Origin: a virus
Lineage: Duplodnaviria; Heunggongvirae; Uroviricota; Caudoviricetes
Direction: 5' to 3' (one strand)
IMG/VR virus record: IMGVR_UViG_2778261393_000006
Length of the DNA stretch: 40,899 nucleotides
Part shown: positions 18,005 through 19,030 of the stretch, piece after piece
Layout of the letters: each line of letters starts with the position of its first letter
Numbering within the stretch: the first letter of the stretch is position 1
Made by a program: the position numbers and the translations under genes
The notes under the pieces: generated by a model
The model's input: only the letters and a program-made list of their open reading frames with translations
The model's database searches: none
What the model was told of the DNA's origin: nothing

Positions 18005-18113
18005 CTGGTACTGGTGAACCTGATGTTTCATTTCTGGAGCGCGATTCCTGGCGGAATACCTAGAATCGAGACATTCTGGTAAAATTGTTTTCAGTACAGG
18101 ATGTGGAGGTGAG

Positions 18114-18683
18114 ATGAGAGAACTACCTAAAGATTATTTTTTAGGAGTAGATGATGAGCTCGTCGATTATCTTGAAAAACAAGGGGAAGAGACGATACGA
18201 GAGATTCATCTTTCTAACAAAACCAATGTTGAGAATGGATACAAACTTCTGAACATTCAGATTGTTGGAATTGGTTCATCTTTTTTATTGCTGACACAGA
18301 AAACTAATTTCGATTTTCTCACCGCCGGAATTACCACATTTACATTACTATGGACATGGTGCGCCATTTACTTGGTATGTACTGGTTTATCTGTGAAGGT
18401 TAGGGGCCTGATCAATGCCCCTCCTGATCATATATATCATGAAAAATATAAGGATATGGAGCCCTCGAGCTTTAAAATATTCGCTGATGCAGGATATTTA
18501 GGACCTGATAAGTTATTGCCGCTTATACGAAGGTATCGCCTTGTTGACTTGAGTGATACAGCAAGAGAGTTACTGTTGGAAAATGAGAAAATCCGCACGA
18601 GTCTCGATAAAGCAAGGATGTATACCATCCTTGCTCCGGTAGCGGCGATGTTTATCTCGGCTGTTTTTTTATATGTTCAATGA
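18114..18683 (+). CDS. Hypothetical membrane protein (189 aa, three predicted TM helices), moron in Q-S slot
   Basis: ORF with GGAGGTG Shine-Dalgarno; visibly AT-rich codon usage; hydrophobic segments IQIVGIGSSFLLL, LTAGITTFTLLWTWCAIYLVCTGL and C-terminal ILAPVAAMFISAVFLYVQ; no family recognised. Confidence 0.55.
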   Translation: MRELPKDYFLGVDDELVDYLEKQGEETIREIHLSNKTNVENGYKLLNIQIVGIGSSFLLLTQKTNFDFLTAGITTFTLLWTWCAIYLVCTGLSVKVRGLINAPPDHIYHEKYKDMEPSSFKIFADAGYLGPDKLLPLIRRYRLVDLSDTARELLLENEKIRTSLDKARMYTILAPVAAMFISAVFLYVQ

Positions 18684-18813
18684 CTGAGTCGGCAGAATCT
18701 CCAACAAAAACACGACGTGTAGCAAAGTCTGTAGTACTTTGTGTTGGAGTTGGTTTTGGTGCCACGGGTTGCTGAGGTTTATTTTCACCTTGTGGTTTGT
18801 TTTTTTCAGACAT
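18652..18813 (-). CDS. Hypothetical small protein (53 aa), convergent with the 189-aa gene
   Basis: Internal start of track ORF 18652-19044; ATG preceded by AGAGGA at 5-nt spacing; product MSEKNKPQGENKPQQPVAPKPTPTQSTTDFATRRVFVGDSADSVIEHIKKQPR; 3' end overlaps the 189-aa gene by 32 nt. Confidence 0.35.
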   Translation of the reverse strand: MSEKNKPQGENKPQQPVAPKPTPTQSTTDFATRRVFVGDSADSVIEHIKKQPR

Positions 18814-18907
18814 AAAAATCCTCTTTGTTTGAATTGTTACTTTTGGCGATTTAACGATATCAAACACGAGTATATACCGCCAGAAGCTTAATCTGGCACT
18901 CCATCTG

Positions 18908-18932
18908 GCCCCGGCATGTCCCGGGGCTTTTT
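18908..18932 (+). terminator. Rho-independent terminator between the moron and holin gene
   Basis: Stem GCCCCGG / CCGGGGC (7 bp) with 6-nt loop followed by TTTTT. Confidence 0.5.
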
Positions 18933-19030
18933 CGTTGTTAGGCTCTGGAAACATCCTCGACTTCTTGTTAGCAAGCCTGAGAGCCTGAATCTTACACTTA
19001 GCACCATCCGAACTCTCGGAGGTGAGGCTT

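Follow-up and report, generated by a model that had tools for sequence, protein, structure and literature searches.

What is a pair of convergent genes doing between the antiterminator and the lysis genes of a lambdoid prophage, and do the two belong together? The locus that raises this question lies in the IMG/VR virus record IMGVR_UViG_2778261393_000006, which we analysed at its full length of 40,899 nucleotides (the window). There a compact, 0.9 kb cassette, set between a Q-like antiterminator gene and the gene for the holin S, holds an open reading frame (ORF) for a predicted membrane protein, ORF189, and, on the opposite strand, one for a small protein, ORF53. A sequence-only reading of the window had drawn attention to both ORFs, their Shine-Dalgarno sequences (SDs), their overlap, a terminator and the AT-richness of the interval, all of which are present within a few bases of where it had put them. 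It had further taken the two ORFs for a pair and the interval for acquired cargo. Both suggestions held when homologous loci were compared, and the recurrence of the gene pair with its signals in dozens of diverged loci goes beyond chance. Judged by their conservation, ORF189 and ORF53 are a true functional pair that forms an autonomous, mobile module, and the ORF189 family is best taken as a remote branch, lacking a cyclase, of the PycTM/2TM effector superfamily. We suggest, tentatively, that the module encodes a membrane effector held in check by its partner.

The convergent gene pair and its signals

The cassette is built around two genes.

18114-18683, plus strand: ORF189, predicted inner-membrane protein of 189 amino acids, with an ATG start and the SD GGAGG at 18105-18109
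18652-18813, minus strand: ORF53, small soluble protein of 53 amino acids with an isoelectric point of 9.7, with the SD AGAGGA five bases before its ATG

The genes converge and overlap by exactly 32 nucleotides. We collected homologous loci from one-genome-per-species contigs, IMG/VR and individual assemblies, and found a convergent small ORF at the 3′ end of essentially every intact ORF189 homologue examined. This pairing was seen in about 50 distinct enterobacterial loci and, further afield, in Gilliamella, Burkholderia, Ralstonia, one metagenomic phage, four GC-rich chromosomal loci, the Pasteurellaceae-type lambdoid phage that encodes the homologue P0129, and two further Pasteurellaceae prophages. 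The only exceptions were an insertion sequence in the locus L013 and a frameshift of one nucleotide in a T run in L033. In the latter, an IMG/VR locus, the deleted nucleotide lies just inside the small ORF and ORF189 is intact, and the frameshift may have knocked out the small protein in nature or may be a sequencing error in the homopolymer. In another record, H50 (NZ_CP158353.1), 840 of 841 bases aligned and a single 'hypothetical protein' was annotated.

The small ORF is itself under selection. Its 44 distinct nucleotide versions are all open, with insertions and deletions in multiples of three. In the annotated frame the pooled ratio of nonsynonymous to synonymous polymorphism (pN/pS) was 0.49, the median ratio of the corresponding substitution rates (dN/dS) was 0.28, and there were zero stops; in the other five frames over the same DNA, the ratio was about 1 or more in four and 0.57 in one reverse frame, and each frame gave more than 1,500 stop-codon comparisons. 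By these measures ORF53 is under purifying selection and, because of the frame ratios and the absence of stops, we regard it as a real protein-coding gene, more than an antisense RNA. Indeed, it is the co-occurrence of the two ORFs, together with a dN/dS of about 0.3 in the small one, that marks them as a conserved functional pair.

The ORF53 protein has an N-terminal half rich in Pro, Gln and Lys, which is of low complexity and evolves fast, followed by the motif DFxxxRxFVGDSAD and a basic tail. Its homologues share the motif as DFxxxRxFVGDSA[DE], with F[IV]GDS in the Pasteurellaceae copies. The Prokaryotic Genome Annotation Pipeline (PGAP) gives the small gene a longer product of 71 amino acids, starting from a GTG at 18867 (WP_152948782.1). 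This database start is probably wrong, because the ATG at 18813 and an SD 5 nucleotides upstream of it are kept in all homologues, and because the extra 18 codons (18814-18867, minus strand) overlie a conserved promoter-like block.

That block is one of several signals that accompany the genes.

17973-18008, plus strand: tR′-like intrinsic terminator directly upstream of the cassette, from a terminator scan
18070-18085, plus strand: motif GACATTCTGGTAAAAT, probable -10 element of the ORF189 promoter (TAAAAT with TGn; in the window TGgTAAAAT)
18609-18637, minus strand: conserved 11-bp hairpin in the minus-strand RNA, 15 nucleotides past the ORF53 stop and within the ORF189 codons K-A-R-M-Y-T-I-L-A-P
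18836-18864, minus strand: conserved block upstream of ORF53, reading TTTGATATCGTTAAATCGCCAAAAGTAAC on the minus strand (also given as ..TGATATCGTTAAATCGCCAAAAGTAAC..)
18880-18896, plus strand: small hairpin CCAGA...TCTGG between the probable small-gene promoter and the downstream terminator
18907-18933, plus strand: intrinsic terminator closing the cassette upstream of the holin gene S, from a terminator scan (stem at 18907-18928, then a T run)

On the side of ORF189, the consensus cATTcAGGTAAAAT stands 28-35 nucleotides before the ATG of the homologue in 23 of 28 diverged loci, with related forms in L012, L094, L100 and L103, and in most homologous loci a terminator of varying sequence precedes this -10-like motif by 25-70 nucleotides. 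The window copy, GACATTCTGGTAAAAT, is probably a -10 element; its -35 region is poor. On the opposite strand, the block at 18836-18864 contains the extended -10 element TGATATCGT (18862-18854). It is better kept than coding DNA, being conserved across loci whose proteins are about 50% identical, and in most loci a TG(A/G)TAT(C/T)GT element lies 37-44 nucleotides before the ORF53 ATG. The block is thus a probable promoter and leader of the small gene.

The hairpin at 18609-18637 was found in every locus that we folded. Across 30 distinct sequences, 96% of cells were paired, compared with about 50% in slid controls; four pairs showed compensatory changes, mainly at synonymous third positions, and this covariation was equalled in 0 of 500 shuffles. 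Since many of its G-U pairs would be C-A mismatches on the plus strand, the hairpin is selected in the minus-strand RNA. It probably acts on the small-gene transcript, as a terminator (a weak one, to judge by the poor U tract that follows) or as a 3′ stabiliser. With a promoter-like element at one end and a covarying hairpin at the other, an antisense transcript overlapping ORF189 is likely. Such an RNA would be about 240 nucleotides long, from about 18847 to about 18605, and the ORF189 RNA would extend from about 18092 to about 18933, running across the small gene and its promoter. A scan of 17700-19200 against Rfam found no RNA family.

At the far end of the cassette, the position of the small hairpin at 18880-18896 is conserved and its arms covary (for example, GCCGC...GCGGC in L004 and L005). 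The terminator that follows, described in the sequence-only reading as private to the cassette, is conserved with it: most homologous loci have a GC-rich hairpin and T run at the matching position, irrespective of which gene comes next.

Mobility of the module and kinship of its membrane protein

The following neighbours define the slot that the cassette occupies in the window.

17350-17892, plus strand: Q-like late-gene antiterminator of the DUF1133 family (Pfam DUF1133, E=1.4e-107)
17889-17928, plus strand: putative late promoter PR′, read from the sequence as TTGATT, a 17-nucleotide spacer and TTCAAT (17889-17917), followed by a -10-like TATGCT
19031-19372, plus strand: lambda-family holin S with an MKM dual-start motif, opening the lysis cassette S-R-Rz (Pfam Phage_holin_3_1, E=1.9e-27)

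The first of these genes also matches Pfam Phage_antitermQ weakly (E=3.4e-6) and belongs to PHROG 753, 'anti-termination protein Q-like'; the holin is named 'phage holin, lambda family' by PGAP. The TATGCT after PR′ is a putative -10-like repeat of the type that induces the pause used by Q proteins. A promoter scan picked a different candidate, TTGGCT-N18-TATATT at 17827-17856. Transcription from the putative PR′, once modified by Q, would in this prophage read through both terminators of the cassette.

Within this slot the cassette has the marks of a lambdoid moron, that is, an insertion between conserved phage genes with patchy presence and deviant composition. This follows from three observations. 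The GC content is 0.36-0.44 over 18100-18900 and 0.48-0.55 in the flanks; the cassette occurs in 254 of 5426 complete E. coli genomes (identity nearly always at least 99%), whereas the sequence flanking it has matches in 1445 E. coli genomes; and among homologous loci the gene upstream belongs to any of three unrelated Q families (DUF1133, PF03589 and PF06530). Of the promoter and terminator expected of a moron, the cassette has the conserved terminator at 18907-18933 and the conserved promoter-like TAAAAT motif, which lacks a -35 element.

The gene downstream is equally variable, coming from at least four holin families (lambda-S, LydA, P21-S and one unclassified), and many copies lie elsewhere. 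In Gilliamella the cassette follows the tape-measure gene, in Burkholderia it is found among baseplate genes, in another lineage between a late regulator and the terminase, in the P0129 phage between cI and recT, and in the two Pasteurellaceae prophages in early regions. Chromosomal copies adjoin BrxR and an E2/E1/JAB fusion gene, or DUF4238. At these varied sites the module always brings its own flanking signals, conserved promoter-like motifs and terminators, and in the prophage loci whose neighbours were examined ORF189 points the same way as the operon around it and the small gene the opposite way. Prophages with the module reside in Klebsiella, Citrobacter, Salmonella, Serratia, Yersinia, Pasteurellaceae and Burkholderia. 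The variety of Q and holin families and the sites outside the lysis region rule out a role tied to one lysis system, and on this distribution the module is autonomous, mobile, acquired cargo and no lysis accessory.

Two of the distant loci have features of their own. L100 (Logan contig SRR13842642, 5955-10464) has a distant homologue of the pair in a neighbourhood resembling a defence island, with a 772-amino-acid Prok-E2_A/ThiF/JAB fusion, an uncharacterised protein of 397 amino acids and a BrxR-type WYL regulator; in L100 and in L102 a second convergent gene of 60-64 amino acids (motif IGRNAS[ST]GQF) comes after the first small ORF. The other, L002 (PP818812.1), is recorded as 'Actinobacillus phage vB_Apl-pPE4' and has a cassette of the enterobacterial type. 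Its nin-region proteins are 96-99% identical to those of E. coli Rac and its Q 86%, and because of this near-identity either the Actinobacillus host is doubtful or the phage was acquired very recently. Beside its cassette the PR′ segment is conserved from about 17903 on, with TTGCAT as the -35 element; an ORF6N gene parts Q from this segment, which in the window abuts Q. A stretch of L002 that had looked like a tRNA proved to be none.

ORF189 belongs to a family of about 100 clusters at 50% identity, nearly all of whose members are 160-200 amino acids long. The three transmembrane helices of the sequence-only reading correspond to three long helices in an AlphaFold2 model (pLDDT 84, pTM 0.65), though only residues 68-92 and 169-188 are strongly hydrophobic and residues 45-62 moderately so. 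The predicted layout starts with a cytoplasmic helix at the N-terminus, continues with helices 45-62 and 68-92 and then a helical segment in the cytoplasm, and ends in a C-terminal transmembrane helix at 169-188. The charge distribution fits an N-in topology in which residues 1-44 and 93-168 would be cytoplasmic.

That reading had recognised no family for either protein. Both in fact fall into PHROG families, ORF189 into phrog_11870 (E=1e-107) and ORF53 into phrog_14506 (E=6e-33), neither with an assigned function, and no curated family covers the ORF189 family. Direct searches of the two proteins against Pfam, NCBIfam and PADLOC gave zero matches, structure searches gave nothing informative, and the ORF189 family profile found only noise among PDB sequences (for example, GpsB at E=0.08). 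It was a transitive profile comparison that led further.

We scanned 40 diverse members of the ORF189 family with PADLOC, and three matched a PycTM model (E<=0.1). The thirty members checked before P0129 gave no PADLOC match at E<=0.01. P0129, a protein of 188 amino acids, gave the strongest match, to the PycTM model PDLC02364 (E=1.5e-8, residues 17-182 on model positions 7-152 of 160); it also matched the CBASS '2TM effector' model PDLC00700 (E=4e-5) and has a precomputed Pfam hit to PF18967 (PycTM). Weaker matches were those of P0127 to PycTM (0.007), P0114 to 2TM (0.004) and P0113 to CARF_TM (0.005). P0129 in turn is a clear full-length homologue of the window family, judging from its match to the A1 profile (E=9e-22; hhalign probability 99.4%), a tblastn match (E=5e-10) to the copy in phage vB_EcoS-673R7, which is 99.5% identical to the window protein, and a locus with a convergent partner of 53 amino acids. 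A homology search with the intermediate profile returned no additional PF18967-annotated proteins.

Once a partner cyclase has made cyclic CMP or cyclic UMP, PycTM effectors reportedly deform or disrupt the membrane, and abortive infection follows (PMC11224242; bioRxiv 10.1101/2023.07.24.550367). No such cyclase accompanies the present family. None is named among the 58 annotated genes of the Rac prophage that makes up the window and its flanks, there is none at the P0129 locus, and none was seen in any other gene neighbourhood inspected. The adjacent pyrimidine cyclase (PycC) that characterises Pycsar is therefore missing from the inspected loci, which places the ORF189 family outside Pycsar by membership, and the PycTM profile is reached from the window protein transitively, through P0129. 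On these comparisons the family is best described as a remote branch of the PycTM/2TM superfamily that does without a cyclase. A domain-centric screen with PycTM hits in E. coli dealt with a canonical PycTM-PycC pair, different from the present one (PMC13069673).

A proposed restrained membrane effector and its alternatives

How might such a pair work? At slightly less than an even chance, we think that ORF189 is a membrane effector, serving abortive infection, exclusion, a toxin-antidote pair or addiction, and that it is held in check by the small protein or by antisense RNA. Such an arrangement fits the homology to effectors, the constancy of the pairing, the opposing directions of the two promoters and the insulation by terminators. 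It also has a documented precedent in tai/ati of phage phi80, a 'noncontiguous operon': one of its genes, lying antisense within the Q-dependent late operon, is on in the lysogen and turned down once Q drives late transcription (PMC11364771). The interval would then be a moron of two genes, self-contained and horizontally mobile, in which ORF53 would be transcribed towards ORF189 from its own extended -10 promoter. In the lysogen, ORF53 would keep ORF189 silent or inactive, whether its protein serves as an antidote, its transcript as antisense RNA, its transcription interferes with that of ORF189, or several of these combine. The balance might tip if ORF53 synthesis stopped, for example upon host shut-off by an infecting phage, or if strong sense transcription overran the ORF53 promoter; in Rac this transcription would be the Q-antiterminated transcription from PR′, brought about by the prophage's own Q or by the compatible Q of a superinfecting lambdoid phage. 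ORF189 would then accumulate or be released and compromise the cytoplasmic membrane, and the outcome might be an aborted infection, exclusion, or the killing of cells that lose the module. Promoter activity, membrane toxicity of ORF189, its neutralisation by ORF53 and the biological role are all parts of this model that we infer. The sequence-only reading had guessed at an abortive-infection, exclusion or toxin-antidote module; the remote relation to PycTM and 2TM effectors and the defence genes beside some distant members speak indirectly for that guess, whose functional part we still put forward as a proposal.

Several points weigh against this model. Both promoters are guesses from sequence, and that of ORF189 lacks a -35 element. 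The window protein itself matches nothing in Pfam, NCBIfam or PADLOC, its structure searches returned only generic three-helix (BAR-like) bundles, and the link to PycTM is transitive and depends mainly on one member, P0129, in a class of hydrophobic helical proteins that is prone to spurious profile matches. In two near-identical loci a frameshifted ORF53 stands beside an intact ORF189; if the frameshift is real, this suggests that ORF189 is tolerated without the small protein, the antisense RNA remaining, and that a protein antidote is perhaps inessential. A convergent order is also unusual for protein-protein toxin-antitoxin pairs. Finally, sequence alone does not decide which partner is the effector.

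A more specific version of the restrained-effector model seems to us doubtful. It would make ORF189 a PycTM-type effector uncoupled from cyclic-nucleotide signalling, and the module a new family, widespread in Gamma- and Betaproteobacteria, controlled by a convergent bifunctional transcript. That this transcript acts as antisense RNA and at the same time codes for a small antidote protein, rich in proline and with the F[IV]GDS motif, is a suggestion in which we place a similarly low degree of belief. If true, such control logic would be undescribed for any 2TM/PycTM effector or any toxin-antitoxin class.

An explanation without killing is superinfection exclusion, in the manner of HK97 gp15, P22 SieA and T4 Imm, which block the DNA entry of incoming phages and leave the cell alive. 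ORF189 would be made by the lysogen, and at a high level late in the lytic cycle, and would block the entry of incoming DNA, with ORF53 only tuning its level. A moron-borne membrane protein that has a promoter-like motif and a terminator to itself would suit this role, as would the residence of the module mostly in prophages, and the Gilliamella and Burkholderia homologues lie beside tape-measure or tail genes, the slot that HK97 gp15 uses (the paper on gp15 is cited in PMC11364771). We nevertheless consider exclusion unlikely. Homology to the lambda exclusion proteins was rejected (hhalign probabilities against the ORF189 family profile of 0.4% for SieB and 0.15% for RexB, both below 1%), and no exclusion family of Pfam matches ORF189; the sole detectable homology is to killing effectors. 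In addition, members occur outside prophages as well, and an obligate partner gene under selection is foreign to known Sie proteins.

The roles of the two proteins could also be reversed, which we regard as quite unlikely. In this case ORF53, made by the lysogen from the antisense promoter, would be the anti-phage or host-modulating effector, and ORF189, made from the Q-dependent late transcript, a self-immunity protein sequestering it at the membrane once the prophage itself enters lytic growth. The architecture resembles that of phi80 tai/ati, where the lysogen expresses the antisense gene, late transcription under Q turns it down, and the sense gene is a late one (PMC11364771). The common orientation of ORF189 and the phage operon in the prophage loci whose neighbours were examined agrees with such a division of labour, and the extended -10 element of ORF53 looks stronger than the ORF189 promoter. 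However, the module is also found at chromosomal and defence-island loci with no late operon, ORF189 has a conserved promoter-like motif of its own and is the partner related to known effectors, and the N-terminal half of ORF53 is of low complexity and fast-evolving.

The position of the cassette directly upstream of the holin and downstream of tR′ in most enterobacterial loci would suggest that ORF189 is a holin-like or antiholin-like regulator of lysis timing, the first of the late genes, with ORF53 preventing its leaky expression; it is a membrane protein, and it would be strongly expressed on antitermination by Q. We judge this very unlikely and reject ORF189 as a holin or antiholin, because the cassette does not depend on which lysis genes are present or where they lie. 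It is indifferent to the type of endolysin as well as to that of the holin, of which four families follow it; copies lie far from lysis genes, in the PL region, in the tail region and in non-phage loci; no holin or antiholin family of Pfam or PHROGs matches ORF189; and most lambdoid phages lack the cassette (it is in 254 of 5426 E. coli genomes).

Highly improbable, lastly, is an anti-defence decoy, an orphan PycTM-like protein that would protect the phage rather than the host by disturbing the signalling of host Pycsar or CBASS systems (it might, for instance, bind the cyclic nucleotide or poison oligomers of the effector): an effector homologue without a cyclase would suit it, and phages often have orphan defence components as counter-defences (orphan antitoxin-like enzymes, for instance; PMC11825919), but the module sits in chromosomal sites resembling defence islands, its obligate antisense partner and insulating terminators imply a need to restrain the protein, and most hosts of these prophages are not known to have Pycsar.

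The surrounding prophage and known systems

The window is a complete E. coli Rac prophage with its integration site beside ttcA, and is 100% identical to that of strain TUM14771. Its gene order runs from intR, xisR, ralR, recET, kilR and sieB to replication genes of the ydaSTUV type, and from there through nin-like DUF1367 and YbcO genes to the Q-like DUF1133 gene, the cassette, S-R-Rz, trkG and the head and tail genes. The Rac prophage of E. coli K-12 presumably lacks this part.

Other features of the prophage are worth recording. Rfam matched RalA, the small RNA antitoxin of the Rac RalR/RalA type I pair, at 1557-1735 (plus strand; 225 bits), and ralR is annotated opposite the RalA strand in the identical RefSeq record. 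A type I toxin-antitoxin locus of the hok/sok type lies at 14879-15172, with an Rfam match to sok at 14879-15049 (101 bits) and a Hok/Gef coding sequence from PGAP just 3′ of it. The prophage therefore has, in addition to the cassette, at least two classical membrane or nuclease toxins under antisense control. An IS5 transposase gene (12667-13683, minus strand) is inserted between a hypothetical early gene and a KilA-N gene. Between the DUF1971 gene and the DUF1367 gene of the nin region, a stretch of about 860 bp (about 15600-16460) with a GC content of 0.25-0.34 has no annotated gene. Downstream of the lysis genes, trkG (potassium uptake; 20433-21908, plus strand) is AT-rich cargo (GC content 0.29-0.43) between Rz and the terminase genes; it is the known moron of Rac and, lying about 1.5 kb downstream of the cassette, a second piece of inserted cargo in the late operon. 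Within Rz (19849-20313), an ORF of 61 amino acids (20069-20254, plus strand) is nested in another frame, with a lipobox-like VVVGC and a proline-rich mature part. It is the expected Rz1 o-spanin and is left unannotated by PGAP in the identical record.

We found the module described nowhere in the searchable literature; what it appears to present is an effector superfamily already known, here with a partner and a control architecture that are new. About 4-5% of complete E. coli genomes have the module, in complete Rac prophages. The analysis offers a candidate function for two genes that pipelines label 'hypothetical', the smaller of which has a mis-annotated start, and would add a compact two-gene candidate to the defence and addiction systems borne by prophages.

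How does it compare with systems that are known? Lambda and P22 SieB and lambda RexB are likewise prophage-encoded membrane proteins of similar size, and P0129 is encoded in the cI-proximal early-left region, the site of sieB in lambda. They differ from ORF189 in having no detectable homology to it, and Rac has its own sieB elsewhere in the prophage. With lambdoid morons (HK97 gp15, lambda bor and lom, and the cargo between Q and S in Stx phages) the cassette shares AT-richness, a promoter-like element and terminator of its own, and patchy presence; unlike them, it consists of two opposed genes and is also found outside the Q-S slot and outside phages.

Among toxin-antitoxin systems, type I pairs with convergent transcripts that overlap at their 3′ ends include txpA/ratA and bsrG/SR4 of Bacillus prophages. 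Like these, and like lambda oop RNA opposite cII, the cassette would have convergent, 3′-overlapping transcripts with a structured antisense 3′ end, and it shares with the type I pairs a prophage-borne setting and a sense product targeted to the membrane. The putative toxin, however, has 189 amino acids and conserved cytoplasmic segments, compared with fewer than 60 amino acids in type I pairs, and is thus no small peptide; nor is the antisense partner a non-coding antitoxin, because its transcript encodes a protein under purifying selection. Set against type II-like pairs, in which a neutralising gene would go with a toxic one, what was seen is the constant co-occurrence of two adjacent genes; their order is convergent and non-operonic.

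Like phi80 tai/ati, the cassette is a two-gene unit set in a lambdoid prophage's Q-dependent late operon, with one gene antisense and the other co-oriented, and here the antisense gene and the sense late gene lie between tR′ and S; the resemblance is one of architecture only. Tai/Ati lies ahead of the packaging genes. In the present case the larger, membrane protein is the sense product and the small one the antisense product, and Tai is set apart by its description as a 26-kDa soluble protein that blocks tail assembly (PMC11364771).

The closest comparison is with PycTM of Pycsar (PF18967), the 2TM effectors of CBASS and CARF-TM, which, like ORF189, are all-helical proteins of about 160-190 amino acids with membrane helices. 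P0129 matches the PycTM profile almost from end to end, and by analogy ORF189 might damage the membrane and so abort infection. The differences are that the window protein reaches no PycTM model, that most members of its family are prophage morons, that no pyrimidine cyclase or other generator of a nucleotide signal stands beside any member inspected, and that the partner is instead a small proline-rich protein, convergently encoded. PycTM/2TM-type membrane effectors are known only from defence systems based on cyclic nucleotides, in which they do the killing. If our reading is right, a cyclase-less family with a small protein encoded in antisense would represent a second way to arm and restrain such effectors.

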